From: an uncultured Bdellovibrionales bacterium
GTDB lineage: Bacteria > Patescibacteriota > Minisyncoccia > Moranbacterales > UBA1568
Length of the DNA stretch: 64,000 nt
Direction of reading: 5' to 3'
Assembly (NCBI GenBank): GCA_964444815.1
Contig: CAYUIR010000001.1
Coordinates: forward strand, 78,031-142,030
Each line of letters starts with the position of its first letter. Position 1 is the stretch's first letter. Position numbers and translations under genes: made by a program. This document shows, piece after piece, positions 5,204 through 47,183 of the stretch. The notes under the pieces were generated by a model. The model searched no databases. It saw nothing but the letters and a program-made list of their open reading frames with translations, and had not been told where the DNA came from.

Positions 5204-6031
5204 CTACGGTTCGATGGGGAGACCGCTCTCTTTTTTGAGATAATCACTGCCAGCGAGCGTCTTGCCAGTAAAGATATTGAGATCGGCTAATCTGACACCA
5301 CCTTGAAATGAGGTCAGTTCGTTTTCGCCATAGACCACGATGGTACTACCTGCTGGGATCTCGCCTGAGCGCTTCTCTAATTCTTTGAGCGGAATATGAA
5401 AGGCTCCTCGAATATGAGCCCGTTCATAGGCTTCCGTCGTCTGTACATCGAGGAGCAAGAGATTGGTTGGGGGATTAAAATAGAGCTTTTTAAACTCATC
5501 CAAACTGATGTAGGTCACTTTAGATTGATCGAGAAATGAGTTGGGATTGCCCTCTGAAATGAGTTGATTGCCACCTCGCTTCCAAGCCTCGATGCCACCT
5601 TTCAACATGAAAACAGGGTAGGATTTCTGACGGAGGATAGTCTCAGTCGTTTCTCGTGTATTTTTATCCTGAGCCGAGAAAACAATGATGACCGTACTGC
5701 CTTCTTCTGGCACAAAGGTAGCGAGGGCTCCTGTTGAAATGGATCGGGATCCGAGGAGGTGTTCACTCTCAAAGTCAGCCTGGCCACGGACATCCACTAA
5801 GACGAGCTGTTCTTTGTTCATGAGCTTTTGCCGGATGGTATTGGCATCGAGTTCAGGGATCGGGTTACTTTCTGCGGGAGAAGGGAGGGCAGCGGAGATG
5901 TCTTCTTCTTTGGGAGTATCTTTAAAAAGCGTTCGTCCGATGAAGTAGCCACCGACTAAGAGCACGAGCAAACCGCCTACGAGTACGGCTCGAGCATTTT
6001 TCTTTTCTTGTGAAGTGGGGAGTTCGCGCAT
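5204..6031 (-). CDS. membrane-anchored tandem rhodanese-homology-domain protein (no cysteine at all)
   Basis: N-terminal TM helix. Two RHOD-like repeats (LVDVR...FESEHLLGS; LLDVQTTEAYERAHIRGAFHIP). The protein contains no Cys. Confidence 0.7.
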   Translation of the reverse strand: MRELPTSQEKKNARAVLVGGLLVLLVGGYFIGRTLFKDTPKEEDISAALPSPAESNPIPELDANTIRQKLMNKEQLVLVDVRGQADFESEHLLGSRSISTGALATFVPEEGSTVIIVFSAQDKNTRETTETILRQKSYPVFMLKGGIEAWKRGGNQLISEGNPNSFLDQSKVTYISLDEFKKLYFNPPTNLLLLDVQTTEAYERAHIRGAFHIPLKELEKRSGEIPAGSTIVVYGENELTSFQGGVRLADLNIFTGKTLAGSDYLKKESGLPIEP

Positions 6032-6042
6032 AAGAGTGGGTG

Positions 6043-7122
6043 CTACTCGAGGAGAGTACCGACAAAACCTTCGTTGCCATTGAGAAATTCCCGAATGGGG
6101 AGGGGTGATTTGCCTTCTAGTTGGACTGTCTCGAGGAAGAGTATACCGTTGCCTGTTTGAACACCAATTTTTTCACCGATTTCACAGACCATGCCGATAG
6201 GTTGCTTGAGACCAGGATTCAACTTTTGGACCGAAACGGTGAGGAGCTTGAGGCGGAGGAGATTGTCCTTTTTGTGCCAGTAAGCAAAGATACCTGGCCA
6301 AGGAAAGAGCGCTCGATAGCGGTTGTAGATACTCTCGGCATCGTCACTCCAGACGATCTTGCCGTCACTCCGTTCGATGAGCTGGCAGAGAGTCGCATCT
6401 TCATGGTTTTGCTTCTTTGGGGTGATGCGACGCTCTACCCAGTCTGGGAGGGTAGAGAGGAGGAGGTCACGGCCAGCCATCGTAAGTTTGTCTGTGAGAG
6501 TCTCCGTAGTATCATCTGGGGCAATCGGGACCGTCACTTGGGTCAAGATATCACCCGTATCCATCCCGCGGTCCATGAGCATGATGGTGACACCAGTTTC
6601 GCTGGCACCGGCAAGGAGCGCGTTTTGGATCGGAGAGGCGCCTCTCCAGAGTGGGAGAAGTGAGGTATGAAAGTTGATACAGCCGAATCCTGGGAGATTG
6701 AGGACCGATTCGGGGAGAATTTTGCCATAGGCAGCGACCATAATGAGATCTGGCTTCCAGTCTGTCAGTGTTTTGAGTGTAGCATCATCCATCCGTTCAG
6801 GCTGGAGGAGCGGGAGGGCGCGTTCGACGGCAAGTTTTTTGACTGGACTCTCTTCAATCTCTCGTTTTCGACCGGCCGGCTTGTCTGGTTTGGTGACGAC
6901 ACCGACGATGTTGTACTTGGCATCGAGGAGTGCCTGGAGGAGTGTGGCGGAAAGTGTCGGCGTACCCATAAAGACTACCCGGACCTTGGGTGGGCCTTGC
7001 TTGTCGGCGACAGTGGGCTTTGTGCTATGAGGAGAGCGCTTATCCTTTGAGTGATGCACCATCACTTTGTGGCCGCGGGTAGGCCAGAAATGCTCGACAA
7101 AGCGTCTAAAGAGGCTGGTCAT
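6043..7122 (-). CDS. fmt: methionyl-tRNA formyltransferase
   Basis: VVFMGTP...NIVGVVTKPDKPAGR, GCINFHTSLLPLWRGASPIQ motifs. Start is uncertain: ATGs at 7182, 7122 and 7062. 7182 would overlap def by 77 nt. Confidence 0.85.
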   Translation of the reverse strand: MTSLFRRFVEHFWPTRGHKVMVHHSKDKRSPHSTKPTVADKQGPPKVRVVFMGTPTLSATLLQALLDAKYNIVGVVTKPDKPAGRKREIEESPVKKLAVERALPLLQPERMDDATLKTLTDWKPDLIMVAAYGKILPESVLNLPGFGCINFHTSLLPLWRGASPIQNALLAGASETGVTIMLMDRGMDTGDILTQVTVPIAPDDTTETLTDKLTMAGRDLLLSTLPDWVERRITPKKQNHEDATLCQLIERSDGKIVWSDDAESIYNRYRALFPWPGIFAYWHKKDNLLRLKLLTVSVQKLNPGLKQPIGMVCEIGEKIGVQTGNGILFLETVQLEGKSPLPIREFLNGNEGFVGTLLE

Positions 7123-7591
7123 AAGGTAGATTTTTTTGTTTTTTCTCTTGTTTGAGGAAACGATGAAGGATGAGCACACCATCTAAGTGATCGACTTCGT
7201 GCTGGATGACTGTCGCGAGGAATCCGCTAGCGCGCAACTTCTTCGGGAGGCCCTTTTCATTGATATAGCGGACTGTGACCGTCTCGGAACGGAGAATGGG
7301 AAAGAATTCGCCTGGGAGACTGAGGCAACCCTCTTCTGAAACGATGAGCTCTTGTGAGCGGGATGTGATCTCGGGATTGATGAGGAAGTACTGTTTCTTC
7401 TCGACCTCAGCGACTGCGAGCCGGAGTGGGATATTGATCTGAGGCGCCGCCAAACCGACCCCGTGCTCCGTGTGCATGGTCACTATCATCTTGGGGAGGA
7501 GTTCCTGTATCTCAGGAGAGAGCGGGTCTGTGACCAGCTGGGTTTTTTGACAGAGGATGGATTTGTCCTCGCCAGTAACGAGTGGAAGCAT
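7106..7591 (-). CDS. def: peptide deformylase
   Basis: GVGLAAPQI, EGCLSLPG and HEVDHLDG motifs. ORF trimmed to the ATG at 7591, 10 nt after the priA stop. Confidence 0.9.
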   Translation of the reverse strand: MLPLVTGEDKSILCQKTQLVTDPLSPEIQELLPKMIVTMHTEHGVGLAAPQINIPLRLAVAEVEKKQYFLINPEITSRSQELIVSEEGCLSLPGEFFPILRSETVTVRYINEKGLPKKLRASGFLATVIQHEVDHLDGVLILHRFLKQEKKQKNLPYDQPL

Positions 7592-7601
7592 AGGGAGTCG
7601 T

Positions 7602-9563
7602 TTAGCGGAGAGAGAGTGGATCAATATCAATGATGAGGTCCTTGCTATTTTTTTCGAGAAAGATGCGGATATCAGGTGGAAGCGTCTCGCGGAATCGGAG
7701 GAGTGTCGTCGACTCAAACCGACCACGCTTTTTCGGTCGATCTACACTCTTCGTCGGATAGAGTCGACAGTCCTTGGTGAGGAGCGGTGAGAGTGCCCTC
7801 GCGAGGTGTTCACTCTTTTTGTGGACCTCTTGGGCTGACTTCCCAGTTGTGCCGAGAGCGACAAAACGCGCAAAGGGCGGATAAGCAAAGTCTCGTCTCT
7901 CTTCAACGAACTTGGCCAAGATACTCGAGCTCCCCTCAGTCACTATTTTTTGGAAAAAGGCGTGTTCTGGATGAAAAGTTTGGACGATGACTCGCCCAGA
8001 AGGGGAGGATACGGTCTGGCGCATGGCTCGGGAAATGTCCCGAAAAAGGCGCTCATCAGCCTGAAAATCAGGAAAAAGAAGGAGACTATCCGCATCAATC
8101 ATAGCAACGAGCGCGAGTTTCGGCAAGGGTGGATCTTTGAGGGCCATCTGGGTACCGATGATGATATCGAGCTCTCCGGCAAGGCCACGAGAGATGATCG
8201 CTTGCAGCGCTCCAGTTGATTTTTGGGTAGAGCTATCGAGGCGCGCGATACGAGCTGGCGGAAAACGCTTGCGGATTTCACGCTCAACCTTTTCGGTGCC
8301 AAAGCCCACATGACGAAACACGAGGTGGCCACAGCTTGGGCAGTTGGGAAAACTCCCGGTCTCAAAGGAGCAATTGAGACAGCGGAAACCACCATCTACG
8401 GTATTGATGAGGGGGTGATCACATTCCTTACAGCGGAAAACTTCTTTACAGCGCTCGCACACGGAGAACGCACTCAGACCCTGACGATTGATATAGAGGA
8501 GAATTTGCTCGCGCCGGGAGAGTGCCTCATCGATACGGAGCGCGAGCTCCTCGGAAACTGGGGAGTAATTCCGACGGTAGCGCTCGAGGCGCAGGTTCAC
8601 CACCGAGAGCCGACTCCCAAAGGGTGGATGGAGTGGTATCGGTGCGACTGGTAGCATATCGCCACGTTCTATCCGAGCCAGAGTCTCAACACTCGGAGTA
8701 CCAGAAGTCAATATGAGGGTGGCTTGGTGGATGTGAGCGAGTAGCTCGGCGACGCGTTTGCCGTGATAACGTGGGCTCATGTCCCATTGCTTATAACTCT
8801 CGTCTTGCTCCTCAGTGACAATGATGGCGCCTAGATTCTTGAATGGGGCAAAGAGGCCCTGGCGAGTCGAGAGGATAATCCGGGCTTCGCCACTTCGCAC
8901 TCGTTCCCAGGCAGAAAAGTAGGCACCGTCGGAGAGATGGCTCTGGAGCGTGGCAATTTTCGCGGCGGGGAAAGCACTCTCTAGAGCTCGGAGAAGGATG
9001 GGAATGAGCGTGATTTCCGGAACCAAGACGAGGACTTGTTTCTGAAACTTTTCGTAATGCTTGATGGCGAGAAGAAGCGAACGCTTGGCTCCAGTATCGC
9101 GCGAGGTATCGATGAAGAGCGGTCGCTCACTCTGTGCCCAGAATGGATTCGCCATGAGGACACGTTCTTCCTTGGTGAGTCGGATGACTTTCAGTACTAC
9201 GGTATGGGCTCCAGATTTTTTGGTGAGGCGCTCTTTGACCCGTTTGGCGATAAAATGTTTGAGTGTCTTCCCAAGCGGAGTAAAATATTCGGTACTGATT
9301 TCTTGGGCGAGTGCGCACTGTGCCCCATTAAGGAGAGCTGGTTCTATAACGTCGGTGACAAATTTCATCCAAGTAGGTCTCCGTCCTGGGAGAGCCTGAC
9401 ACTGAAAGACGATGCCTTGCCCCATCTGACGTCCAAACGATATGGAAACGAGTGAACCAGGCTCGACGGGTACGGTGCTTGCATAGCTAAAAAGCGGTGA
9501 CCGCGCGAGAGGCAGGATCATGAGGGGGGCCACTTCGAGGCGATAGAGCGAAGAGTCTTTCAT
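7602..9563 (-). CDS. priA: primosomal protein N' (PriA) homologue with degenerate helicase motifs
   Basis: VLVLVPEITLIP (motif Ia), Cys-rich Zn region CERCKEVFRCKECDHPL...CLNC...CPSCG, IIIGTQMALK (motif V). Walker A and B are not canonical (see findings). Confidence 0.85.
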   Translation of the reverse strand: MKDSSLYRLEVAPLMILPLARSPLFSYASTVPVEPGSLVSISFGRQMGQGIVFQCQALPGRRPTWMKFVTDVIEPALLNGAQCALAQEISTEYFTPLGKTLKHFIAKRVKERLTKKSGAHTVVLKVIRLTKEERVLMANPFWAQSERPLFIDTSRDTGAKRSLLLAIKHYEKFQKQVLVLVPEITLIPILLRALESAFPAAKIATLQSHLSDGAYFSAWERVRSGEARIILSTRQGLFAPFKNLGAIIVTEEQDESYKQWDMSPRYHGKRVAELLAHIHQATLILTSGTPSVETLARIERGDMLPVAPIPLHPPFGSRLSVVNLRLERYRRNYSPVSEELALRIDEALSRREQILLYINRQGLSAFSVCERCKEVFRCKECDHPLINTVDGGFRCLNCSFETGSFPNCPSCGHLVFRHVGFGTEKVEREIRKRFPPARIARLDSSTQKSTGALQAIISRGLAGELDIIIGTQMALKDPPLPKLALVAMIDADSLLLFPDFQADERLFRDISRAMRQTVSSPSGRVIVQTFHPEHAFFQKIVTEGSSSILAKFVEERRDFAYPPFARFVALGTTGKSAQEVHKKSEHLARALSPLLTKDCRLYPTKSVDRPKKRGRFESTTLLRFRETLPPDIRIFLEKNSKDLIIDIDPLSLR

Positions 9564-10936: not shown

Positions 10937-12433
10937 ATGTCAAACGTTCGAGTCAGATTTGCCCCATCGCCAACAGGATTTCTCCATGTTGGGAGTCTTC
11001 GGACTGCACTCTATAACTATCTTTTCGCCAAGAAGCAGGGTGGAACTTACGTTCTCCGCGTCGAGGACACCGACCAAAAGCGTTATGTTGAGGGCTCAAT
11101 GGAAAGCTTGATACGTTCTTTGGATAGCATGTTTGTCGGGGCTGACGAAGGGGTGGTGCTCGAAAACGATGCGGTCATAGAAAGGGGTGCTCATGGCCCG
11201 TATGAACAATCCAAGCGCCTGCCTCTATATCGTGAATACGTAGACAAACTATTGGCGAACAAACAAGCCTACTACTGTTTTTGCACGCATGAGCGACTCG
11301 AGGAGCTCCGGAATGAGCAGTCCAAAAATAAGCAAGCACCTAAATATGACAAGCGTTGCCTCGCTCTCACAATGATTGAGAGAGCAGCCAAGACTCATGA
11401 GGGTGCTCCATTTGTGGTTCGCCTCAACGTCAATCCGGAGCGGGGAGCAGTAGTGTTTCAGGATATGGTCCGAGGCAAAGTGAGTATTCACACCAAGGAT
11501 GTTGACGATCAGGTTCTCATGAAATCTGATGGTTTTCCGACCTATCACTTGGCCAACGTTGTTGATGATCACCTCATGCAAATTACACATGTCATTCGTG
11601 GTGAAGAATGGCTCCCAAGTACTCCGAAGCACGTCCTTCTCTACGAAGCGTTTGGATGGGAAGCGCCACAGTTTGCGCATCTGCCGCTCCTCCTCAATGC
11701 AGACAAAAGCAAGCTCTCGAAGCGTCAGGGTGATGTGGCAGTGGAGGACTACCTTAAAAAAGGCTATCTCAAAGAAGCGCTCCTTAACTTTGTCGCGCTC
11801 CTTGGATGGAATCCTGGGAAGGGGAGTACCCGGGAAATATTCTCTCTCGATGAATTGGTGGAGGCATTTGATTTCGCTCAGATCCATAAAGGTGGCGCTG
11901 TCTTTGACTTGAAGAAGCTCGACTGGATGAATGGTGAATACCTGAAGAAACTCTCTGTCGATGAGCTCTACACTCGGGCGCTTGAGTTTGGCCAGTTTCA
12001 AAACGAATTTTTTGCGACGGTAGGGGAAGCATTGAAATCCGAGACTTATCTCAAACGTGTCCTGACCGTCGAGCGTGATCGACTGGCCCGTCTCACAGAC
12101 ATTGGGCTCCACAATCCCTTCTTCTTTGTTTTGGGGGAATATGAGGCCAAGATGCTCAACTGGAAAGACAATGATGCCAGTATGACGCGTGCTTCTTTGG
12201 AACAAGCAGAGAAGCTCCTTGAGAACTTTGACGATGCTACCTGGTCAACCCTCACTCTCGTTGAAGAAAAATTGCTCGCGGAAGCTGGCGATAAGCGTGG
12301 TGACTTTCTCTGGCCACTTCGGGTAGCACTCACCGGAGCCGAACGTTCACCTTCACCAGGCCAGGTTGCCTGGGTTCTTGGGAAAGCCGAGAGTCTCGCA
12401 CGCCTCAAACAAGCCATCGCCAAGCTGGTGTAG
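10937..12433 (+). CDS. gltX: glutamyl-tRNA synthetase
   Basis: RFAPSPTGFLHVGSLRTALYNY (HIGH region) and KLSKRQG (KMSKS). Confidence 0.95.
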   Translation: MSNVRVRFAPSPTGFLHVGSLRTALYNYLFAKKQGGTYVLRVEDTDQKRYVEGSMESLIRSLDSMFVGADEGVVLENDAVIERGAHGPYEQSKRLPLYREYVDKLLANKQAYYCFCTHERLEELRNEQSKNKQAPKYDKRCLALTMIERAAKTHEGAPFVVRLNVNPERGAVVFQDMVRGKVSIHTKDVDDQVLMKSDGFPTYHLANVVDDHLMQITHVIRGEEWLPSTPKHVLLYEAFGWEAPQFAHLPLLLNADKSKLSKRQGDVAVEDYLKKGYLKEALLNFVALLGWNPGKGSTREIFSLDELVEAFDFAQIHKGGAVFDLKKLDWMNGEYLKKLSVDELYTRALEFGQFQNEFFATVGEALKSETYLKRVLTVERDRLARLTDIGLHNPFFFVLGEYEAKMLNWKDNDASMTRASLEQAEKLLENFDDATWSTLTLVEEKLLAEAGDKRGDFLWPLRVALTGAERSPSPGQVAWVLGKAESLARLKQAIAKLV

Positions 12434-12487: not shown

Positions 12488-13741
12488 ATGCCCAAAAGAA
12501 ATACTTTCATTCAATCATTTTTTCTCCTCGCGCTTCTCTCTGGAGGCCTGGTTTCTACGTTTTTGGTCCGGGCGAGTGATAGTGTGACGACGCTCTCTGA
12601 TGCCCAGCAAAAGGCGCTCGAAGACAAGGAGGACGAGCTCGAGGAAATTGACGCCAAGATCAAGGCCTACAAACAGATTATCGATCTCAAACAGCGACAG
12701 GGGGCTACACTCGCCGAACAAATCGAAGGGCTACAGGCCCAGGTAGACAAGCTCGAACTTGAGATCAAGACAACAACCAAACAAATCAACGAGCTGGAAG
12801 GGCAGATTCGGGACTTGTCGCTCCGCGTCGCTGAGAAAAGCATTCTGATTGACCGTCAAAAGCGTATCCTCTCTGAGCTCATGCGTGTCTACTATAGCGA
12901 GTACTCGGGTGACAGTCAGCCGGTATTTTTGGCTTCGGCTGAGAGCCTGCTGTATTTCAAAACCGAGGGCTGGACCGCAAGTATCAGCGACCGAGTGAGC
13001 GAGCTCCTCGATTCCGTCAAAACTCTCCGTGATAGCCTCACCAAAGAGCAACAAGAAGTGAGTGAGAAAAAGGCGGAGGTGGATGCCCTCTACAAGGATC
13101 TTGCCGGTCGCAATGCCAATCTCGAAGCCACCAAAAAAAGTAAAGCATCACTTCTCGCCAAGACGCAGGCCGAAGAAACCAAGTATGATGGCCTTGTCGA
13201 TGACCTCCAGAAACAGCGCGATGATATCGAGAATGAAATCAATGACTTGGAATCCGGACTCTCGACGGATGGACTGCCGAGCTCGTCAAAGAGCCTGCTC
13301 GCGTACCCGGTGAAAAGCGTCAAAATTACTCAGAATTATGGCAAGACAAGCTTTTCCAAGAAGGCCTATGCCTCTGGCAAACACAACGGCGTGGACTTTG
13401 GTGGACCCTACGGCACGACAATTTATGCCGCCGCCGATGGCAAGGTGATCGGTATCGGAAATCTTGGTAAATATGCCTACGGTCGATGGATCGCTATCGA
13501 CCATGACAACGGTATGATTACGCTTTACGGCCACTTGAGCTCTCAGAGCGTCAGTAAAGGAGATAAAGTATCAAAAGGGGAGCAGATTGGCAAAATGGGG
13601 AGTACTGGTTATTCCACCGGGAACCACCTCCATTTCACTGTTTTCTCAGAAAAATCCTACGATGTCGTACCATCGAAGACCGTGAAAGGTCTCAATATTC
13701 CGATTGGTGCCACCGTCAATCCGATGAACTATCTGCCATAA
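12488..13741 (+). CDS. M23 family metallopeptidase with long N-terminal coiled coil (EnvC-like)
   Basis: Signal/TM, about 250 aa of heptad-rich sequence, then HNGVDFGGPYGTTIYAAADGKV...STGNHLHFTV. Confidence 0.85.
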   Translation: MPKRNTFIQSFFLLALLSGGLVSTFLVRASDSVTTLSDAQQKALEDKEDELEEIDAKIKAYKQIIDLKQRQGATLAEQIEGLQAQVDKLELEIKTTTKQINELEGQIRDLSLRVAEKSILIDRQKRILSELMRVYYSEYSGDSQPVFLASAESLLYFKTEGWTASISDRVSELLDSVKTLRDSLTKEQQEVSEKKAEVDALYKDLAGRNANLEATKKSKASLLAKTQAEETKYDGLVDDLQKQRDDIENEINDLESGLSTDGLPSSSKSLLAYPVKSVKITQNYGKTSFSKKAYASGKHNGVDFGGPYGTTIYAAADGKVIGIGNLGKYAYGRWIAIDHDNGMITLYGHLSSQSVSKGDKVSKGEQIGKMGSTGYSTGNHLHFTVFSEKSYDVVPSKTVKGLNIPIGATVNPMNYLP

Positions 13742-13779
13742 GCGGCTTTTATAGCTTCTTAGAAGAAAGAATCACCAGA

Positions 13780-14541
13780 ATGAAGAATAAATCATTCCCA
13801 ATCAGAACACGTTTTGCAAAGGACATCGTAGCGGAAGTACAGTTGCCAGAGCGCCAAATTGGGAAGATAGCTATTATTGCGAGCGGACTCCCCTCTGCCC
13901 CTGTTAAAAAGGAGTTTCTGCACTTTCTAGCTGCGCATGGTTATGTCGTTATCTTTCCTCGCTACCGCGGTACTTGGGAGAGCGATGGTGCATTTTTACG
14001 TGAATCGCCAGCGAAGGACATCGCTGATATTCTTTCTCAACTTGCGAAGAAGAAAAGCATTGTAGATCTCTTCACCAAAGAGAATATTTCTATAAAAGTT
14101 TCGACAGTTCATTTGTTCGGCTCATCATTTGGAGGACCGGCCGTACTACTAAATAGCAAGCATCCACTGGTCAAAAAAGTTATTGCTATTGCTCCTGTTA
14201 CAAATTGGCGTGTCGAAGGGGAGTCTGAGTCTTTTGTAGAGCATGTTCGTTCTACTCAGGCGACATTTGGTATGGCCTTTCGTCCGAATCATGATGGTGA
14301 TTGGTTGAAATTAATCCGGACTAATTTTTATAATCCCATTGATCATCTCGATCAAATCGATGGCAGTAAAGTCTTCATCATTCATGCTCAAGACGACACG
14401 CTTGTTCCAATCAGACCCTCGGTTGATTTCGCACAAAAAACACAATCAGCCATTTATATCAAACCGAGTGGCGGACATGGACTTCGTATGACCCACGGAT
14501 TTCTTTGGAAGAAAGTTGAGGCCTTTCTCAAGAAGCGATAG
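13780..14541 (+). CDS. alpha/beta hydrolase (S9/dienelactone-hydrolase-like)
   Basis: Nucleophile elbow GSSFGG, acid HAQDDTLVP, His in SGGHGL. Confidence 0.7.
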   Translation: MKNKSFPIRTRFAKDIVAEVQLPERQIGKIAIIASGLPSAPVKKEFLHFLAAHGYVVIFPRYRGTWESDGAFLRESPAKDIADILSQLAKKKSIVDLFTKENISIKVSTVHLFGSSFGGPAVLLNSKHPLVKKVIAIAPVTNWRVEGESESFVEHVRSTQATFGMAFRPNHDGDWLKLIRTNFYNPIDHLDQIDGSKVFIIHAQDDTLVPIRPSVDFAQKTQSAIYIKPSGGHGLRMTHGFLWKKVEAFLKKR

Positions 14542-14560
14542 CAATAAAAATTTGACATGA

Positions 14561-14602
14561 GACTCCCCTGGCGATTTTTTGAAAAAAGAGGGGAGTCTTT
14601 TT
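14561..14602 (+). terminator. rho-independent terminator after the hydrolase gene
   Basis: GACTCCCCT (14561-69) pairs with AGGGGAGTC (14589-97), followed by TTTTTA. Confidence 0.75.
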
Positions 14603-14856
14603 ATGCTCCGTACTATTGATAATACATCAAAATATTCGGATCGTTTTGATGGTATCTTTATCTCATGTCTGAGTATTCATGATTCAAGCAAAGGAGGAGG
14701 GATAGATGTATACCCCCGTAGATTCAAATGCCTCACAATCGATTATACGCATTCGTATATTCATAAAAATACAAAGCGCCAGTGGAGTACGATGATTGTA
14801 CGTGGTAGCGGATTATCTCTCTCTGGCTCTTCCTTACGTAATGTCCTATAAGTTAC

Positions 14857-14900
14857 ATTGTGAGACGTATAGACAATACTTCTCTCAAATAAGCCACGGA
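14857..14900 (+). repeat. direct repeat R1 (left copy) flanking AT-rich island I
   Basis: ATTGTGAGACGTATAGACAATACTTCTCTCAAATAAGCCACGGA. 42/44 identical to 16922-16965, with weaker similarity for about 150 nt further. Confidence 0.85.
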
Positions 14901-15095
14901 TCAAAGCTCGGTCTGGATATACCCTGTACCCATGACATACGCCACGCGTCTTTCCCCTACTACGATGGTCGGAAAAAACGAGAGTGGTATTTTGAATAAT
15001 AAAACAGAATGTAGCAAAAAATCTTCGAAAAAATCACTTCAATTTCGTAACCACCCCCCCCTACTTTTTCTTGCTTTGCGGGGGATTTACTAGAA

Positions 15096-15125
15096 AATAA
15101 AAAAGCCATCACTACAGATAGATGG
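15096..15125 (-). terminator. terminator of the ImmA-like/TM operon
   Basis: CCATC (15106-10) pairs with GATGG (15121-25). On the minus strand it is followed by a T-run. Confidence 0.6.
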
Positions 15126-15141
15126 TTTCTATAGGTCGACT

Positions 15142-15525
15142 CTATTTATTAGAATACGGATGGTTATTATATTTAATATCTGTAAAAATCCATCTCACCA
15201 TTATTTTTACGATTAAGACCGTTTCTCCCAGAGTGCCTAATGTTAATACTGAAAGAAAAGGCTGTAAATCAAAGACGTATGGTGAGTCTTTATACGTATA
15301 AAATATTACCCATATAAATACATACGTGATAATATTCTGCACCAACAGAAAAATAGGAAAAGCATATGCAAAAAACTTTCTGATGGTAAGTTTAAAAGCG
15401 GCATCTTTTTGCCATGTCTCCATTATAGAGGCAATGGCCTGATCTTTTTTGCTAGAAAAAACTTCCGCTTGTTCGGAGTAACTGAAATCACCGTTGTCTT
15501 CTGTTATTTGTGGTTCAGCAGGCAT
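15142..15525 (-). CDS. small membrane protein (2-3 TM), translationally coupled to the ImmA-like protease
   Basis: 127 aa. Acidic N-terminus then hydrophobic helices (FAYAFPIFLLVQNIITYVFIWVIFY; FLSVLTLGTLGETVLIV). Start overlaps the upstream stop by 11 nt. Confidence 0.6.
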   Translation of the reverse strand: MPAEPQITEDNGDFSYSEQAEVFSSKKDQAIASIMETWQKDAAFKLTIRKFFAYAFPIFLLVQNIITYVFIWVIFYTYKDSPYVFDLQPFLSVLTLGTLGETVLIVKIMVRWIFTDIKYNNHPYSNK

Positions 15526-16027
15526 AATCAGTTAATCCAAGATTTTTCAATCTATAAGCCATTGCAGTTTGGGAAACACCAAAGACACTTGCAATTAATG
15601 TTACATCCTTGGTTTTTGACCACCATATTTCTATTAAAGGTTTCGGCATCAGTAGACTTGCAGCAAAAGTATTTGCTTCTGCTTCTTCAGTCTTATCCTG
15701 CATTTCTAGATTCACAGTGTCTAGTCTCCAAAAAGTGTCTTTTTGTTTATCTTTGTGTAAGATGTAGTGCCCTAATTCATGAGCAATAGTAAATGACACT
15801 CTAGGAAAATACTCACCATCTGCAACATATATAGTTTTTGATACTCGATCTAGCTGTCCTAAAGCATCGGGTTCAGAAAAGTTAACCTTTTTTAAGGACA
15901 GGCCATATTTTTTAGCAACTTTCCCCAGATCTACTGGCGGAACAATTTGTTCTTCGCCATAAACTTCCGCAAGAACATCGGCTGCTTGAGCTTCTAAAGT
16001 ATTGAGTTTTTCTTGGCTGAGTTTCAT
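15515..16027 (-). CDS. ImmA/IrrE-family (COG2856-like) zinc metallopeptidase
   Basis: HEXXH as AHELGHYILH, downstream EEAEANTFAASLLMP, and a C-terminal VFGVSQTAMAYRLKNLGL tail typical of the family. Confidence 0.75.
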   Translation of the reverse strand: MKLSQEKLNTLEAQAADVLAEVYGEEQIVPPVDLGKVAKKYGLSLKKVNFSEPDALGQLDRVSKTIYVADGEYFPRVSFTIAHELGHYILHKDKQKDTFWRLDTVNLEMQDKTEEAEANTFAASLLMPKPLIEIWWSKTKDVTLIASVFGVSQTAMAYRLKNLGLTDYAC

Positions 16028-16111
16028 ATATAACTAGTTTACTACGCTTTCAGTATACCACAGGGATTGTTCCCTTTCCGCCTATTGAGTAGGTGTTATT
16101 TTTTCTATCTA

Positions 16112-16786
16112 CTAAGGAGTTGAAGATGGCGTCGTAGTAGGAATTTTATTTGGAAACTCGTAGATGATTTTTAGTAACATTTCAACAAAAGAGAGAAGAT
16201 TTTTTGCTTCTTCTTCAGTCATGATTGTAATCTCGTGATTAGCTTCATTTCCCTTTTGACGAATGTGGTCTACCCACCCTTTCGATGCCGGTGGAATATA
16301 GTTCTCATCAGATAGATATTCAACGTATTGAAGAAAGTTCAAATTTTGTGCGGCACCTTTATCTACAGCAACATGCATGAGTAGTTTTCGGCAAGATAGT
16401 ACCGTTGCAGTAAATGCATTTTTCGAATAAGCATCCCTTGCTTCTGTATAGAGATTTTTTACACCGTTGTCCGTAATTCCATTTACATCCCCACCTGGCC
16501 TAATACCAGGAGTTTGTTTTCTAGCTGCATCAAAAAATGTTGGCCTATAACAGTGATGGCAAATGTAAATTTCACCTTTTCTATCTCCACGACCATCTTC
16601 AAGTTCCCCTCGAAAAAAACCAACATTTGAAGCTAAGGAATTATTACAATAGCCACATGTATAGCTTTTTGAATTGAGAATACTCGTATTACTCCAAAAA
16701 TAGCTCATTCCATTAAAACGCTCAATATATTTATATCTTATTATACCACCAAAAATATAGTTGTAATATTTGATAAAATATGACAT
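16112..16786 (-). CDS. zinc-ribbon + DUF4145-like domain protein
   Basis: CGYC...CHHC ribbon, then a helical C-terminal domain (LSCRKLLMHVAVDKGA...WVDHIRQKGNEANHE...EEAKNLLSFVEMLLKIIYE) recalled as DUF4145. The start could be the second MSYF (16708). Confidence 0.55.
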   Translation of the reverse strand: MSYFIKYYNYIFGGIIRYKYIERFNGMSYFWSNTSILNSKSYTCGYCNNSLASNVGFFRGELEDGRGDRKGEIYICHHCYRPTFFDAARKQTPGIRPGGDVNGITDNGVKNLYTEARDAYSKNAFTATVLSCRKLLMHVAVDKGAAQNLNFLQYVEYLSDENYIPPASKGWVDHIRQKGNEANHEITIMTEEEAKNLLSFVEMLLKIIYEFPNKIPTTTPSSTP

Positions 16787-16827
16787 ATTCTTAAAATTAT
16801 ATTTATGTTCCTTTATTTAAGCCTTTT

Positions 16828-16851
16828 GTCCTTTAAATGAAATTAAAGGAC
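16828..16851. promoter_or_regulatory. 9-bp perfect inverted repeat upstream of the DUF4145 gene
   Basis: GTCCTTTAA-ATGAAA-TTAAAGGAC, 42 nt upstream of ATG 16786. Confidence 0.5.
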
Positions 16852-16921
16852 ATTTTTGTTTTAGGAGAAAACCGACTCAATTTATTTCTATTTTTACTGC
16901 CCTGCTGGTCGTTTAACTAGA

Positions 16922-16965
16922 ATTGTGAGACGTATAAACAATACTTCTCTCAAACAAGCCACGGA
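16922..16965 (+). repeat. direct repeat R2 (right copy) flanking AT-rich island I
   Basis: ATTGTGAGACGTATAAACAATACTTCTCTCAAACAAGCCACGGA. 42/44 identical to R1. Confidence 0.85.
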
Positions 16966-17127
16966 CTAAAAAGATACAGTACCGCATGTGTATTGCGCTC
17001 GATTTCCTGTTTATCCCCCTGCCCAGATGGCGTCAGATTTCAATGAGTACTTTTAAATATTGAATGAGGAAAGTTTCGGAAATTTTATGGTAAAAAATAT
17101 CGCGAGTTTTATATGCTACCCCCTACT

Positions 17128-17159
17128 GAAAATGAAAATTCCGGTGGTGGAGTCCGGAA
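17128..17159 (-). terminator. hairpin + T-run downstream of the 39-aa ORF
   Basis: TTCCGG (17139-44) pairs with CCGGAA (17154-59). The minus strand continues TTTTCATTTTC. Confidence 0.55.
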
Positions 17160-17207
17160 ATTAAAAAAAGCCCCGTGAATACGGAGCTTGGCGTTCAATT
17201 TGATTCT

Positions 17208-17327
17208 TTAGCGGAAGGCTCGGAGGACCAAGATGACGAGGATGACGACTACAGCGAGGCCGACACAACCACAGCCACGTCGACGACGGAGGCCACCTCC
17301 TATACTATTACGAAATCTTCCAAACAT
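17208..17327 (-). CDS. possible 39-aa basic/hydrophobic peptide (MFGRFRNSIGGGLRRRRGCGCVGLAVVVILVILVLRAFR)
   Basis: ATG 17327, stop 17208. Sits between two minus-strand terminators. No clear Shine-Dalgarno. An acidic ORF (17175-17384) lies antisense to it. Confidence 0.3.
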   Translation of the reverse strand: MFGRFRNSIGGGLRRRRGCGCVGLAVVVILVILVLRAFR

Positions 17328-17390
17328 ATGAGCATGCAAATGACTTATTTTGTATACAATAAGTATATCACAACTCCAATCTGAGTAAGA

Positions 17391-17418
17391 AAAAACCGGT
17401 CGGTACGCGATGCGTACC
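17391..17418 (-). terminator. terminator of the GGDEF gene
   Basis: GGTACGC-GAT-GCGTACC (17402-17418). The minus strand continues GACCGGTTTTTTTC. Confidence 0.75.
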
Positions 17419-17433
17419 TTCCGGTGGTCGGTT

Positions 17434-18345
17434 CTACTCGATAGCGTCAAGGTTGATATCGAGCGCTGTGTGGAGCACCGACTGGGTCGAGATGCAGACG
17501 GTATTTCCGCCTTTCTTTTTGGCGCGGTACATGGCCTCATCGGCTAGGCTCATCAGCCTGCTCAGAGTCACTGCGATATCGGACCCCGGCTCAATACTGC
17601 CGTCCATGATGCCGATGGAAGCAGTTACCTGTGGCTTACCTTCGATGAGCTGGAAGCGCCCATCCTGAGACATCTGCATGAGGAGCCGCTGTGCGCGTTC
17701 GCTGGCAAATGATGCATTCGCATTGAATGCCGCTAGCACGAACTCATCTCCACCTCGTCGACCAATGAGGTCTGTTCCCCGAGGGAAGCATTCACGAACG
17801 AGCTGGGCAAAGGCACACAGCACGCGATCGCCACCATCGTGTCCCTCGCTATCGTTGTAGATCTTGAAACCATCGAGGTCCACGTAAAGGACTGAGACAT
17901 CCGCGGTCGACTGAGGGTATGACGCTCGGAGCTGGTTCTGAGCCTCGGCGAAAAAGAACTCTTCGAATCCAGAGCGACTCAGAAGGCCCGTCAAAGGGTC
18001 TCTCGTTGAGCGTTCTTCGGCCAACCTGAGAGCGTTTGCAAGAGACGCTACCTGAGGCCGGAGACGTTTGATTTCCTGCTGTGCCTGATCGAGCTCGCTG
18101 ATCAGTCCCTCGAAGGTGTGTGCGCCGGTCTCCGTGGCCGCAGCCTCGTTGTGCCTCATCGTTTCAATACCCGCAAGGAGCGCCTTGTTCGCTTCCTCTA
18201 GCTTGCTGAGCTTATCTTCCAGAGCTTTCTCCGTCATCGCGTGTCGCTCCTCCGCTCTTGTGGCGGCGACACGGGCAATCCAGAGAAGGACAGTCAGAAG
18301 CAGAACGAGCACGCCGAGAAGCATGCTGGCGACAAAATAATCCAT
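17434..18345 (-). CDS. membrane-anchored diguanylate cyclase (TM + coiled coil + GGDEF)
   Basis: N-terminal TM helix, coiled coil, then LLSRSGFEE...VLYVDLDGFKIYNDSEGHDGGDRVL...RGTDLIGRRGGDEFVL. The RxxD I-site lies 5 residues before GGDEF. Confidence 0.85.
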   Translation of the reverse strand: MDYFVASMLLGVLVLLLTVLLWIARVAATRAEERHAMTEKALEDKLSKLEEANKALLAGIETMRHNEAAATETGAHTFEGLISELDQAQQEIKRLRPQVASLANALRLAEERSTRDPLTGLLSRSGFEEFFFAEAQNQLRASYPQSTADVSVLYVDLDGFKIYNDSEGHDGGDRVLCAFAQLVRECFPRGTDLIGRRGGDEFVLAAFNANASFASERAQRLLMQMSQDGRFQLIEGKPQVTASIGIMDGSIEPGSDIAVTLSRLMSLADEAMYRAKKKGGNTVCISTQSVLHTALDINLDAIE

Positions 18346-20204: not shown

Positions 20205-20675
20205 TTAGGCCGGCACTGCGTCATTGAGCGAGTGGAGCTCGCCGACGGGCTTGTGACGGAGGGCAATGCAATGTGCCACCAGCCGGTCCAGAGCTTCTGT
20301 GTTGTCGGCGGCTACCATGGCGCGCTTGAGCACATCGGGTACGCACTCCGGATCCTGGACGAGTGACCGCAGCCAGGTGGAGACGTCGGCCTCGGGAATC
20401 ACGCCACGATCAGCGAATTCGTGAGTGATCTCGAGGTAGGTATCGAGTCCGGTAGATGCCCCGACCCATACCTGGCAGTTGGTCGGGTCTATTCGATCGC
20501 AGACGGCGCGACCGAGGGTGAGCAATGCCTCCTGAGCCTTTGGCGCCAGTGGCGCACCATGCTCTGGCAGACGCACATCGCTCCACGGCACCAGCACCAT
20601 CTCCGAGCAGTGCTTCTGACTGCCGGGTGGGCAGTCACCGCACGGACCAGTGCATGCAATACGAAAGACTTTCAT
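20205..20675 (-). CDS. hypothetical protein, Cys-rich N-terminus
   Basis: 156-aa ORF (MKVFRIACTGPCGDCPPGSQKHC...) followed by its own terminator. No family recognised. Confidence 0.5.
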   Translation of the reverse strand: MKVFRIACTGPCGDCPPGSQKHCSEMVLVPWSDVRLPEHGAPLAPKAQEALLTLGRAVCDRIDPTNCQVWVGASTGLDTYLEITHEFADRGVIPEADVSTWLRSLVQDPECVPDVLKRAMVAADNTEALDRLVAHCIALRHKPVGELHSLNDAVPA

Positions 20676-20748
20676 GGTTTCTCCTAGAAGGGAGGGTGGG
20701 AATATTGCGCCCCCATTATACCTCCAATTCGCTATTTGGCAAGGGTCA

Positions 20749-20775
20749 ACAAAAAAGCCCTTCTGAGGGCTTTTG
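20749..20775. terminator. bidirectional terminator
   Basis: AAAAAAGCCCT-TCTG-AGGGCTTTT. Confidence 0.7.
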
Positions 20776-20815
20776 GGTTATATGTTGTGAAAATAGGACG
20801 ATGATGGAGATCATC

Positions 20816-21442
20816 CTACTCAAAAATCAAAGCGTCGCCATCTTTTAGAGTTTTATAAGGAATCTTGTTTTCAATGCAATACTGTACTTCTTTGTAAATG
20901 TCAGCTGATTCAGGATGGTCAGAATCAAAGTGTGGTAAGAATGCATAATCAATCAGACCAAGCCCCTCCCAAATTGCTTCTTTTTGACCAGCATACGGAA
21001 GATCTGTTGGATCATCAACGATAGCATATCCCCTCAAAGATGGAGAGAGCACGCATCCCGCGGCACTATAGCCAGCGTAAACAAAATCTTTTTGAGTTTT
21101 ATTATACTCTCGCAATATAGTATCGAGCCCACTAAGTCTCATCGCTTGGCGGAGTATAAAAGTATTTCCCCCGCTTATAAAGATTCCTCCTAAGTTCTCT
21201 AATTTTTCTTTGAGCTTAACTTCATTGTCAAAGTAATTTTTTAAATCAAGGACCTCTACTCGAAGTCCAACGTCAGCCAGACTCTGCATATCACTTGTTA
21301 CATGCTTTTCTCGTCTTTGCGGATCAGCTCCGGTAAAGTCCAATGCATTCGGTATATATCCCACCCTTTTATTTTCTGAAAACAATGCTAAAAGCGATTC
21401 TGGATGATTACCAATTTTATATGACGACAGATAGAATTTCAT
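20816..21442 (-). CDS. peptidase S51 (dipeptidase E-like) family protein, AT-rich
   Basis: GGIFISGGNTFILRQAM and the nucleophile context YAGYSAAGCV. GC clearly lower than the flanks. Confidence 0.7.
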   Translation of the reverse strand: MKFYLSSYKIGNHPESLLALFSENKRVGYIPNALDFTGADPQRREKHVTSDMQSLADVGLRVEVLDLKNYFDNEVKLKEKLENLGGIFISGGNTFILRQAMRLSGLDTILREYNKTQKDFVYAGYSAAGCVLSPSLRGYAIVDDPTDLPYAGQKEAIWEGLGLIDYAFLPHFDSDHPESADIYKEVQYCIENKIPYKTLKDGDALIFE

Positions 21443-21448
21443 ATGTTG

Positions 21449-21473
21449 TGCTGGGGAGGAAGGGAAATCGAAC
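21449..21473 (-). repeat. duplicated 3' end (T-loop + acceptor) of tRNA-Gln
   Basis: Minus sense GTTCGATTTCCCTTCCTCCCCAGCA, against GTTCGATCCCTTCCTCCCCAGCA in the intact gene. It abuts the S51 gene ATG. Confidence 0.8.
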
Positions 21474-21512
21474 TGCTCTCCGCCGGCTGGCGGATGCGCT
21501 CTATAGGGCTTC

Positions 21513-21532
21513 CCTGCCTACCGGCAGGCAGG
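21513..21532. repeat. 20-bp GC-rich palindromic element
   Basis: CCTGCCTACCGGCAGGCAGG. Confidence 0.85.
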
Positions 21533-21591
21533 CGCCCTCTAGTCCGGCAGTGCCGGTCACCTCAAACGGGCAAACAGGTATTTTCCCGACC

Positions 21592-21611
21592 CCTGCCTGC
21601 CGGTAGGCAGG
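21592..21611. repeat. 20-bp GC-rich palindromic element (inverse orientation of the centre)
   Basis: CCTGCCTGCCGGTAGGCAGG, the reverse complement of the 21513 copy. Confidence 0.85.
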
Positions 21612-21644
21612 CCTTTCCTCGTTCGATCTCTTCCATCATAACAC

Positions 21645-21669
21645 AAACAAAAAAGCCCCTGAAGGGACC
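21645..21669 (-). terminator. terminator after tRNA-Gln
   Basis: Minus sense GTCCC-TTCA-GGGGC followed by TTTTTTG. Confidence 0.6.
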
Positions 21670-21684
21670 TTTTGTTTGCGTATG

Positions 21685-21756
21685 CTGGGGAGGAAGGGAT
21701 CGAACCTTCGCATGGTGGGACCAGAACCCACTGCCTTACCGCTTGGCTACTCCCCA
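21685..21756 (-). tRNA. tRNA-Gln (anticodon CUG)
   Basis: Hand-folded cloverleaf: acceptor TGGGGAG/CTCCCCA, D-arm GCC/GGC, anticodon arm GTGGG-TTCTGGT-CCCAC, T-arm GAAGG-TTCGATC-CCTTC. U1-A72 as in bacterial tRNA-Gln. CCA not encoded. Confidence 0.9.
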
Positions 21757-21760
21757 GTAT

Positions 21761-22012
21761 CTATAAACTACCCAGTATTTCTTTGAGCTCCCTTCGTCCA
21801 CTCCTTGTTTTTAGGTAGAGCTCTCTCTTACGTGCTTTGTCCAGACTATCAAATCTTTCAGAGTAAATCAATCGTAGAGGCCTTCGATTCATCGTGGCCT
21901 TACACTTACCAGTATTGTGTTCTTCCAACCTTCTTTTTAGGTTATCTGTTGAACCAGTATAGGTTCGATTGTCATTTAGACTCAGAAGAACGTACACCCA
22001 GTTTTTTTGCAT
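21761..22012 (-). CDS. GIY-YIG domain nuclease (83 aa)
   Basis: WVYVLLS...YTGSTDNLKRRLEEHN...RPLRLIYSE...ARKRELYLK. ATG 22012 lies 2 nt after the tRNA-like segment ends. The stop is 4 nt from the tRNA 5' end. Confidence 0.8.
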   Translation of the reverse strand: MQKNWVYVLLSLNDNRTYTGSTDNLKRRLEEHNTGKCKATMNRRPLRLIYSERFDSLDKARKRELYLKTRSGRRELKEILGSL

Positions 22013-22014
22013 AA

Positions 22015-22110
22015 GACCAGAACCCACTGCCTTATCCGTCCTCGTTACGCTCGGCCGAGACAAGCCGCTTGGTTTACCTCGGCTCGCTATGCGAGACGGG
22101 CTACTCCCCA
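22015..22110 (-). pseudogene. decayed copy of the 5' half of tRNA-Gln with two hairpin insertions
   Basis: Minus sense TGGGGAGTAGC-[27 nt]-CCAAGCGG-[30 nt]-TAAGGCAGTGGGTTCTGGTC. All three blocks are identical to the intact gene up to the anticodon arm. Confidence 0.8.
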
Positions 22111-33569: not shown

Positions 33570-33627
33570 GCGACCGCCGGTAACCGCCGGCAAACCAAGA
33601 AACGGCAGTACCTAACAAGGCTGCCGT

Positions 33628-34149: not shown

Positions 34150-34439
34150 TATTTACTTTTTCTAAGCTTCACTTCTAGAATAAGTGCTGAACCAATAAAG
34201 AGTATGAAGTCAAAAAGAAGCTTAGCTACTGAAAAGCCATACTCTTTTTCAAAAGTGTAGGCACCTATGTAGACTTCATTCGGACCTTCCCAAATAAATG
34301 GGAGCGGAAAACCCACTATTACTTTTGGTGAGTCTGCAGTAAGCATAAGAGGAATTAGCTGCAAAGTTAGCCCGATGAGTATTGTGACAATCAATAGAAA
34401 GAGTTTACTTGGTCTCATAGAACTATGGCCTCTCACCAT
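34149..34439 (-). CDS. small membrane protein (96 aa, 3 TM)
   Basis: Hydrophobic helices. Coupled to the GrpB-like gene by a 1-nt overlap. AT-rich. Confidence 0.5.
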   Translation of the reverse strand: MVRGHSSMRPSKLFLLIVTILIGLTLQLIPLMLTADSPKVIVGFPLPFIWEGPNEVYIGAYTFEKEYGFSVAKLLFDFILFIGSALILEVKLRKSK

Positions 34440-34476
34440 TCTTGTTGGCGATAGAGAGGATGAAGTTTATATTAAG

Positions 34477-35690: not shown

Positions 35691-35716
35691 ACAGTTTAGT
35701 ATTTAGTTAATTATAT

Positions 35717-47182: not shown

Positions 47183-47183
47183 T

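Follow-up and report, generated by a model that had tools for sequence, protein, structure and literature searches.

A putative integrase-less defence cassette at a dif-like site of the replication terminus in Candidatus Moranbacteria

Integrative mobile elements exploiting Xer recombination (IMEXs), such as CTX-phi, VGJ-phi and TLC-phi of Vibrio cholerae or the gonococcal genetic island, encode no integrase of their own (PMC5357621, PMC6744903). They reside at the dimer-resolution site (dif) of the replication terminus, are flanked by direct dif and dif-like copies, bring along a dif mimic whose spacer is unlike that of dif, and show successive or variable cargo on one side of dif. In this work we analyze an AT-rich island with three genes, situated in a 64-kb stretch (hereafter "the window") of the chromosome of an uncultivated member of Candidatus Moranbacteria (Candidate Phyla Radiation, CPR, also known as Patescibacteria). 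The island resembles the IMEXs in all these respects, provided that the conserved 28-mer at its left border is indeed the dif site of the host. On the other hand, it comprises only about 2 kb and is a bare cassette without phage, replication or transfer genes, its host is a CPR bacterium, the arms of its site are not those of classical XerC/XerD sites, the identity between the two sites reaches 32 nt past the arm, and the dependence on Xer is something that we infer. We propose that the island is an integrase-less, IMEX-like cassette put into dif by the Xer recombination of the host, and we assign to this reading a probability of roughly 0.7. IMEXs are a known kind of element; it is the form of a bare 2-kb anti-phage cassette and the CPR lineage that are new.

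A second precedent comes from Legionella, where the attachment site of the mobile element LME-1 likewise exposed a dif that had gone unrecognized (PMC9765430). The Legionella dif is intergenic, about 30 bp long and low in G+C, has dyad arms and a short spacer, and lies near the maximum of the cumulative skew, as does the site described here; its arms are unlike the known Xer-binding motifs, so that a system with a single recombinase was suggested (PMC9765430). Integration of LME-1 leaves an intact dif and a modified copy with few arm substitutions, which parallels the attL and attR sites of our island, and the changes in the second copy stabilize the insert (PMC9765430). However, LME-1 is large and phage-like and its dif/XerL system was proven genetically, whereas our island is known from computation alone.

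The cis-mobilizable elements (CIMEs) of streptococci also consist, like the island, of integrase-less DNA between att direct repeats that can be mobilized only in trans; unlike the island, they are derived from integrative conjugative elements and use the integrase of the latter at the ends of tRNA or protein genes, not at a dif-like site of the terminus. The sites that bound pdif modules usually stand in inverted XerC/XerD order. In Acinetobacter these modules are likewise small, carry one to few accessory genes and no recombinase of their own, are bounded by Xer-type sites and occur in different contexts (PMC7399989, PMC9455709). In contrast to the island, which is chromosomal, located at the terminus and bounded by direct copies, they are found on plasmids and contain mostly resistance or toxin-antitoxin genes.

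The island and its empty site

An earlier note on this DNA had described a pair of 44-bp direct repeats around AT-rich DNA that encodes an ImmA-like protease, a coupled membrane protein and a DUF4145 protein, all three on the minus strand, and that lacks an integrase or transposase; our analysis bears out each of these points. The two copies of the 44-mer, ATTGTGAGACGTATARACAATACTTCTCTCAAAYAAGCCACGGA, agree at 42 of 44 positions (the coordinates of all features are collected in Table 1), and at weaker similarity the repeat extends to 63 nt with 84% identity (14843-14905 and 16908-16970). The GC content of the enclosed DNA is 0.30-0.39, compared to 0.50-0.57 in the flanks. As to the possibility that the 44-mer might be a dispersed repeat, the window contains no further copy at up to 3 mismatches, and shuffled sequences lead one to expect none. 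Pfam scans of 34 of the larger open reading frames (ORFs) of the window detected no integrase or transposase domain, and the three genes of the island encode none; the remaining ORFs of the window were covered only by a tblastn search with a hand-written consensus of the Xer C-terminus, a weak test that yielded no match in the window or in any of the loci compared with it.

Among the GTDB species genomes, the glutamyl-tRNA synthetases (GluRS) nearest to that of the window, at up to 68% identity, belong to Candidatus Moranbacteria/Moraniibacteriota, which places the window in an uncultivated CPR bacterium. We refer to it as strain W. Look-ups of exact proteins and a single scan of metagenome contigs at the DNA level yielded three further strains of the same species complex: strain B (contigs L006-L008 and L091), strain C (L092) and strain D (L093-L098, from several unrelated samples). 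The scan, made with the core of the 44-mer, led to L091 and L092. Syntenic loci of sister species were fetched via homologs of the neighboring M23 peptidase that are 66-90% identical to that of the window, and synteny is kept only in relatives within this range; across the nine lineages that possess the 28-mer, the M23 proteins are 66-97% identical to that of the window.

The relative with a single repeat and no island, for which the earlier note had recommended a search, is strain C. Its contig L092 aligns to positions 17700-16922 and 14900-11462 of the window; a single 44-mer is common to both flanks, and the 2,065 bp of the island are missing. Thus, the island is a true insertion. Two sister-species loci, L109 and L111, represent independent cargo-free states.

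Comparison of the two strains that carry the island in diverged chromosomes, W and D, reveals how sharply its history is separated from that of its surroundings. The chromosomal flank left of the repeats is 71.8% identical between them and the flank on the right 62.8%, whereas the non-coding arm beside the left repeat is 95.0% identical, the three island genes 99.2-99.4%, the internal spacer 98.8% and the non-coding arm beside the right repeat 98.6%; the flanking genes are about 88-93% identical, and the nucleotides at the junctions are the same in both strains. Since the island is 95-99% identical and the directly adjacent flanks only 63-72%, it must have been transferred to the same site as a discrete unit, and this happened after the two host chromosomes had diverged. 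It entered this site at least twice or was passed between lineages. In most flanking segments strain D, which bears the island, is closest to strain C, which lacks it (intergenic flanks C versus D 93.5% on the left and 88% on the right; C versus W 70% and 65%). As the island is younger than the split of C and D, the empty site of C probably represents the original state and not a scar of excision. The earlier suggestion of an old site-specific insertion thus holds with respect to the site-specific character, as the island is bounded by recombination sites, but not with respect to age.

Much weaker similarity had also been noticed to the right of each repeat copy. This similarity is real but weak: a colinear global alignment is significant (z of about 4.3, 0 of 500 shuffles), while the score of the best local alignment is reached by 48 of 500 shuffles and is not significant. 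To the right of the site, all related lineages share AATACTTCTCTC..AAGCC and then, about 85-95 nt further on, TTCCCCTAY. We observed the latter motif (TTCCCCTAY, or TCCCCCTGC) at this distance from the XerD-like arm in every lineage, including L109, L111 and L113, as well as in the arm of the island itself; in the window it lies at 14951-14960 and 17013-17023. The C8 tract mentioned in the earlier note is present at 15054-15061; strain B has C9 there, which is the sole difference between W and B across the island.

The dif-like 28-mer and the replication terminus

The left edge of the 44-bp repeat is straddled by a 28-mer of 11-6-11 organization, in which a XerC-like arm (14841-14851) and a XerD-like arm (14858-14868) enclose a central hexamer (14852-14857). 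A scan with a degenerate core of classical dif gave six weak matches in the window, one of them at 14848-14868, and the 28-mer at 14841-14868 is the sole match in the window, at up to 8 mismatches, to the 28-mer of the related lineages. It was found once per locus, at the equivalent place, in 18 loci that represent nine lineages. The spacer GTTACA is invariant. The XerC-like arm reads ATGTCCTATAA in strains W, B, C and D and in L102-L104 and L108-L110, ATGTCTCATAA in L111 and L112, and ATGTCTTATAA in L113 and L114; the XerD-like arm reads TTGTGAGACGT in W, B, C and D, TTATCCGACGT in L102-L104, TTATCTGACGT in L108 and L110, TTATGAGACGT in L109, L113 and L114, and TTATGAGACAT in L111 and L112. 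The dyad symmetry of the arms is perfect in L111 and L112 and extends to 9 of 11 positions in L113, 8 of 11 in L109 and 7 of 11 in the window; the ATAA-N6-TTAT arrangement of classical dif is present in sister species. The intergenic DNA around the 28-mer is about 66% identical between lineages, and in L113 the neighboring genes are different. Within the species complex, the 50 nt at 14840-14889 are identical in the attL of W, the attL of D and the empty site of C.

A dif site is recognized as an intergenic, low-G+C site of about 28 bp with dyad arms and a short spacer, situated at the shift point of the skew (PMC9765430, PMC3025954). Because the 28-mer is kept in nine lineages, most of which lack the island, with an invariant spacer and dyad arms, we argue that it serves the host, and we regard it as the putative functional dif of the chromosome. 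Our literature searches found no description of a dif site for the CPR, and scans with the full sites of Escherichia coli and Bacillus subtilis and with difSL and difH gave no match at up to 9-10 mismatches.

The hairpin that the earlier note had drawn within the 44-mer (TTGTGAGA/TCTCTCAA) does exist, as part of an imperfect palindrome with 13-nt arms and a 5-nt spacer, but it is probably not the functional core; that role belongs more likely to the 28-mer than to either the hairpin or the 44-mer. We had considered the 31-nt palindrome TTGTGAGACGTAT-AGACA-ATACTTCTCTCAA as the recombination core, and demoted it to a conserved dif-adjacent sequence: the window contains 16 comparable palindromes (about 4 expected), mostly terminators, and the right arm is missing in L102 and L108. 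Among 80 GluRS loci from distant relatives, none had a similar palindrome. We also rejected small ORFs that run across the repeat on either strand, as one copy has no start codon and the frames are not conserved between lineages. The octamer TTACGTAA to the left of the left copy, to which the earlier note had drawn attention, is not conserved, as strains C and D have TTGCACAA instead.

The GC skew of the window is positive at 1-10 kb and negative at 27-64 kb, whatever the orientation of the genes, with a plateau in between. As the single-base skew is too flat, with its plateau at 10-27 kb, to pinpoint the site, we used the polarity of G-runs (runs of at least 4 G on either strand, island excluded) and determined the switch point by maximum likelihood. 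Left of the best switch the runs are distributed 44:7 between the plus and the minus strand, and right of it 79:164, with a gain in log-likelihood (lnL) of 26. This polarity does not depend on the strand of the genes, since it persists where they run the other way: the ratio is 19:4 over a block of minus-strand genes (5204-9563) and 10:23 over one of plus-strand genes (41971-47780). In L111 the last plus run lies at 12211 and the first minus run at 12466, with the site at 12354; in L113, in spite of its different neighboring genes, the flip occurs between 13744 and 14001, with the site at 13883; in both loci the polarity thus changes no more than 150-250 nt from the site. The same flip at the site is seen in D, L102, L108 and L109. 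Thus, the flip of G-run polarity at the 28-mer marks the replication terminus.

Table 1. Features of the island and of its insertion site (window coordinates; P', non-coding arm of the island next to the left repeat)
Feature	Position	Strand	Remarks
Candidate dif (attL)	14841..14868	+	ATGTCCTATAA-GTTACA-TTGTGAGACGT, 11-6-11
Left 44-bp repeat	14857..14900	+	last spacer base, XerD-like arm and 32 nt of conserved dif-flanking sequence
Mobile unit	14858..16922		2,065 bp with one repeat copy counted; absent from L092
P' arm of the island	14901..15141		non-coding; similar to the chromosomal DNA right of dif; contains TTTCCCCTAC at 14951-14960, poly-C tract at 15054-15061, terminator-like hairpin downstream of the membrane-protein gene
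Predicted membrane protein, 127 aa	15142..15525	-	overlaps the M78 gene by 11 nt, translationally coupled
ImmA/IrrE-type M78 metallopeptidase, CapP-like	15515..16027	-	Pfam Peptidase_M78, E=1.5e-16
RAZR/PD-T7-4-like DUF4145 protein, 198 aa	16112..16708	-	Cys4 zinc ribbon and DUF4145 (HEPN-like RNase) domain
Promoter-like site	16740..16767	-	ATTACA-16 nt-TATAAT with TG, upstream of the ATG at 16708; consensus match only
attR, degenerate dif mimic	16906..16933	+	TGGTCGTTTAA-CTAGAA-TTGTGAGACGT
Right 44-bp repeat	16922..16965	+	private substitutions: W at position 16; D at positions 5, 7, 12 and 43
Chromosomal right flank of dif	16966..17207		TATCCCCCTGC at 17013-17023 and terminators of convergent minus-strand genes (terminator-like site at 17189-17168); 63% identical W versus D, 88% C versus D

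Proposed mechanism and alternative explanations

Compared with the candidate dif, attR has an identical XerD-like arm, but only 7 of 11 positions of the XerC-like arm and 2 of 6 bases of the spacer are the same, and it differs from the 28-mer of the related lineages at 9 positions. Its XerC-like arm and spacer derive from the island. Because the spacers stay with their XerC-like arms, the exchange must have taken place at the border between spacer and XerD-like arm or to the right of it, in the 44 nt common to both repeat copies. Both the 32 nt that follow the XerD-like arm and the TTCCCCTAY motif occur to the right of the site in the cargo-free relatives and also in the island's own arm; the weak extended similarity to the right of the repeats is thus explained by the island carrying sequence of the right flank of dif.

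We propose the following scenario. In its circular form, the island would carry the mimic TGGTCGTTTAA-CTAGAA-TTGTGAGACGT followed by about 270 nt that resemble the right flank of dif. Recombination between mimic and dif, at the border between spacer and XerD-like arm or beyond it to the right, would insert the cassette on the XerD-arm side of dif, so that the left end (attL) retains an intact dif and the right end (attR) a degenerate one. The predicted junction of the circle is ...CTGGTCGTTTAACTAGAA-TTGTGAGACGTATAGACAATAC...TCAAAGCTCGG. An integrase of its own would not be needed by the element, as the exchange would be catalyzed by the Xer-type tyrosine recombinase(s) of the host, and the location of the site at the terminus would be the reason why the island contains none. 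In the simplest version of its birth, such a cassette would arise by recombination between the dif of a related chromosome and a pseudo-site beyond three neighboring genes, and the newborn cassette would take along the XerD arm and the right flank of the donor chromosome.

This scenario agrees with the pattern of variation around the site. Among the closer relatives, the XerC-like arm and the spacer are constant, whereas the XerD-like arm varies (TTGTGAGACGT, TTATCCGACGT, TTATCTGACGT or TTATGAGACGT) and variable cargo starts directly after it. The loci L108 and L109, otherwise 98.8-99.9% identical, differ by an exchange of 174 nt for 768 nt that starts inside the XerD-like arm, and L102 has three extra genes directly after this arm. 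The genes observed after the dif-like site encode proteins of 211, 228 and 299 aa in L102 (12367-15150) and of 211 aa in L108 (12434-13201), while L109, a near-identical strain of L108, lacks the cargo gene; none of these proteins gave a significant Pfam or PADLOC match. The attR copy has one private change in W and four in D, three of the latter in the arm. Copies that would serve the chromosome are thus constant while the redundant attR decays, which fits an element that uses the dimer resolution of its host.

Several observations weigh against the proposed integration by host Xer recombination. The ORF scans detected no xer or ftsK gene, although the window comprises only 64 kb of the genome. 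The spacers of dif and mimic share only 2 of 6 bases, so that a full two-strand Xer exchange is not expected and we have to assume a pathway that exchanges one pair of strands, as required for some Vibrio IMEXs. The 32 nt of identity beyond the XerD-like arm would also permit homologous recombination, and in L102 and L108 the cargo has no recognizable second site on its right. The 28-mer of the window itself has weak dyad symmetry (7/11): by the rule of Kono et al., a dif has more than 4 complementary pairs between positions 7-12 and 17-22 (PMC3025954), and counting by hand gives 5 pairs in L111 and 4 in L109 but only 3 in the window. The arms match those of B. subtilis dif at only 8 of 11 and 6-7 of 11 positions. 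As to the terminus, the single-base cumulative skew forms a plateau at 10-27 kb with its maximum at 26.9 kb, and in W the best switch of G-run polarity lies at 13597-13890 (2-lnL interval 12700-13898), about 1 kb left of the site; the hydrolase gene within this interval is a foreign allele. Finally, the empty site in the species complex rests on one metagenome contig, and the point of crossover within the repeat cannot be mapped, as the nine polymorphisms among five copies of the 44-mer are all singletons. A crossover at positions 17-33 of the 44-mer, deduced at one stage from the two differences between the copies, was dropped once strain D had made all polymorphisms singletons.

With respect to other explanations, direct repeats, an empty site and discrete mobility would suit any site-specific system. 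The island might be a satellite or cis-mobilizable element, for which the 28-mer or the 44-mer is the attB site of a dedicated non-Xer integrase that acts in trans from a helper phage or integrative element, and its position at the terminus would then be coincidental. Blocks of identity as long as 44 bp are seen more often at integrase att sites than in dif mimics, the arms are unlike classical Xer arms, and circularization would join the non-coding DNA of the island (213 + 44 + 241) into a block of about 500 nt, comparable to an attP and its arms. We nonetheless consider such an element unlikely, given that the site persists in nine lineages, most of them without the island, with an invariant spacer and dyad arms, which argues for a role in the host, and that it coincides with the polarity switch in every lineage, including one with different neighboring genes; furthermore, the core of the 44-mer and the 28-mer were not found in 2.9 million viral contigs, nor was the 25-nt core of the 44-mer found in the GTDB species genomes. 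Rather improbable, in our view, is RecA-dependent homologous import from a related donor, which would have brought the donor's copy of the dif flank and thereby created the 44-bp duplication, the island-free genomes having either recombined between the repeats or never acquired the island. Homologous import normally drags flanks along, whereas here identity falls from 95-99% to 63-72% exactly at the repeats, in two lineages and with the same junctions. The identical runs at the two borders, of 26-50 nt, could serve as anchors, but they are very short. It is true that the island carries about 270 nt like the chromosomal right flank of dif and that recombination is rampant in these genomes, as seen from the replaced hydrolase allele of W, the replaced GluRS allele of C, and the 100% identity of strain B to W exactly from about 14825 rightwards. 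However, import leaves unexplained why the variable cargo of the sister species starts right after the XerD-like arm, and why a dif-shaped site should stand at the left border.

The earlier note had also entertained the idea that the repeats are copies of a small RNA. Two copies of a small RNA gene or regulatory element flanking the island by chance would account for the ability of the repeat to form a hairpin or palindrome and for the conserved non-coding blocks near the site, but not for the division of the two copies between mobile unit and chromosome, with exactly one left in the empty site. A search of 14400-17500 against Rfam gave nothing relevant even with E allowed to reach 10 (at the gathering threshold, the whole window yields two tRNAs only), and the neighboring conserved non-coding DNA shows no conserved fold or covariation on either strand; we regard this explanation as highly improbable. 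An integron cassette was rejected as well, as no integrase is encoded in the scanned ORFs of the window and the repeats are near-identical direct copies rather than palindromes of the attC type (R''/R').

To return to host Xer recombination, it is tempting to go one step further and to consider the 28-mer as the dif of an undescribed Xer system of the CPR, possibly with a single recombinase, as suggested by the perfectly symmetrical arms of L111 and by the conserved non-coding blocks spread over about 300 nt on the XerC-arm side, which could be accessory sequences. In such a system, the dif of these tiny genomes might be a general point of capture and exchange of bare gene cassettes, including those with anti-phage systems; the housekeeping machinery of dimer resolution would assume an integron-like role, and cassettes would be born by recombination of dif with nearby pseudo-sites. 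We offer this extended proposal tentatively, as a possibility that we would not yet bet on.

Cargo genes, terminus surroundings and implications

The DUF4145 protein of the island is related to PD-T7-4, which has been renamed RAZR and combines a zinc finger with a DUF4145/HEPN RNase domain (PMC13017515); DUF4145 has been described as a family of the HEPN superfamily (PMC3710099). The RAZR protein of E. coli, which ring proteins of the phage activate, assembles around portal-like rings, cleaves RNA and aborts the infection (PMC13017515). The ORF of the island protein extends to 16786, but its start lies more likely at 16708, because the homologs are 190-200 aa long. It matches Pfam DUF4145 with E=3.6e-11 and the PADLOC profile PD-T7-4 with E=1.8e-7 over profile positions 8-178 of 211. 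In an alignment of 28 homologs, C18, C21, C50, C53, R150 and H158 are invariant, and the spacing of R150 and H158 is that of the catalytic residues R146 and H154 in E. coli RAZR. Thus, the architecture of a Cys4 zinc ribbon and a DUF4145/HEPN-like domain, with Arg and His eight residues apart, is the same in both (PMC13017515), whereas the profile match is distant and no solved structure was matched by sequence: searches of the PDB with the protein alone and with a profile of the 28 sequences gave no meaningful hit. The RAZR-like family yielded 1,163 matches, many of them in CPR phyla.

The M78 metallopeptidase matches the PADLOC capP profile with E=3.8e-26, and its best solved relative is CapP (7t5t, E=9e-8). 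However, in contrast to the CapH/CapP pair, in which the protease cleaves the repressor encoded next to it, it is coupled to a small membrane protein, and no gene for a CapH-like protein with a helix-turn-helix (HTH) domain stands beside it in the island, so that it cannot be counted as a CapH/CapP system. The 127-aa membrane protein, 99.2% identical between W and D, has no significant match to any Pfam, NCBIfam, PADLOC or PHROG family; our guess is that it is an effector controlled by the protease. Because RAZR-like homologs stand without a protease in two other genomes that we inspected, the cargo probably consists of two modules. Judging from these similarities, the cargo may be expected to defend the host against phages.

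The surroundings of the terminus exhibit further variation. The alpha/beta-hydrolase gene at 13780-14541 is in W only about 59% identical in nucleotide sequence to that of strains B, C and D (the comparison of W with B gave about 55%), while the alleles of these three are 89-97% identical mutually and the neighboring genes 88-95%; it looks like an allelic replacement in W right beside the terminus. The GluRS gene of strain C (L092, matching window 10937-12433) shares only about 71% identity with its counterparts in W, B and D, with genes on both sides at 92-98%, and represents another replaced segment. Strains B and W share 92-96% identity left of about 14825; to the right of this position their identity is 100% as far as at least 19528, save for the one poly-C base, and the 27 substitutions of B (contigs L006-L008 and L091) all lie left of 14824. 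Because B equals W only rightwards, a recombination breakpoint must abut the left edge of the dif-like site (14825-14841).

Left of the site, non-coding blocks at 14561-14754 are conserved in seven lineages, including L113 with its different upstream gene: a hairpin with a T-run (14561-14603), ATAGATGTATACCCC (14702-14716) and CACAATCGATTATACGCATTC (14734-14754), the last with a perfect TATAAT on the minus strand. They could be a promoter, a small transcript or accessory sequences of recombination. A structured RNA is not supported, since the consensus folds reach no more than -7 and -5 kcal/mol and show next to no covariation, and the 82-aa ORF that gene finders call in this region is not conserved as a protein. 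On the other side, between the GGDEF gene and the site, there is a candidate gene for a 39-aa hydrophobic peptide (MFGRFRNSIGGGLRRRRGCGCVGLAVVVILVILVLRAFR; 17208-17327, minus strand) without a family match, followed by the hairpin at 17189-17168. Another variable spot lies at about 20500-22100, between a PD-(D/E)XK nuclease gene and ftsX, where W has a 156-aa ORF, a Peptidase_S51 gene and tRNA-Gln, and strain D (L093 4258-6436) a methyltransferase and small ORFs. A second AT-rich patch (33600-36450, GC 0.38-0.40) contains a GrpB-like gene (33628-34149), a gene for a ClpP-like protease (34477-35025) and two ORFs without a Pfam family (35025-35690 and 35753-36406), of which the latter is flanked by near-identical GC-rich hairpins, AAAAGCGGGGC...GCCCCGCTTTTAT, at 35715-35745 and 36403-36433.

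We hope that the 28-mer will be of use as a concrete candidate for the dimer-resolution site of Moranbacteria and, in fragmented metagenome assemblies, as a marker for the replication terminus. Even if our inference about Xer should be wrong, a recently mobile, integrase-less defence islet remains, with its att sites mapped and its empty site known. The presence of a RAZR-like abortive-infection RNase in CPR bacteria would widen the known range of this system and points to phage pressure on CPR episymbionts. In the sister species, the interval between the hydrolase and the GGDEF gene holds different cargo. If the proposed mechanism is true, bacteria with very small genomes and few classical mobile elements would swap defence genes by means of Xer recombination at dif.

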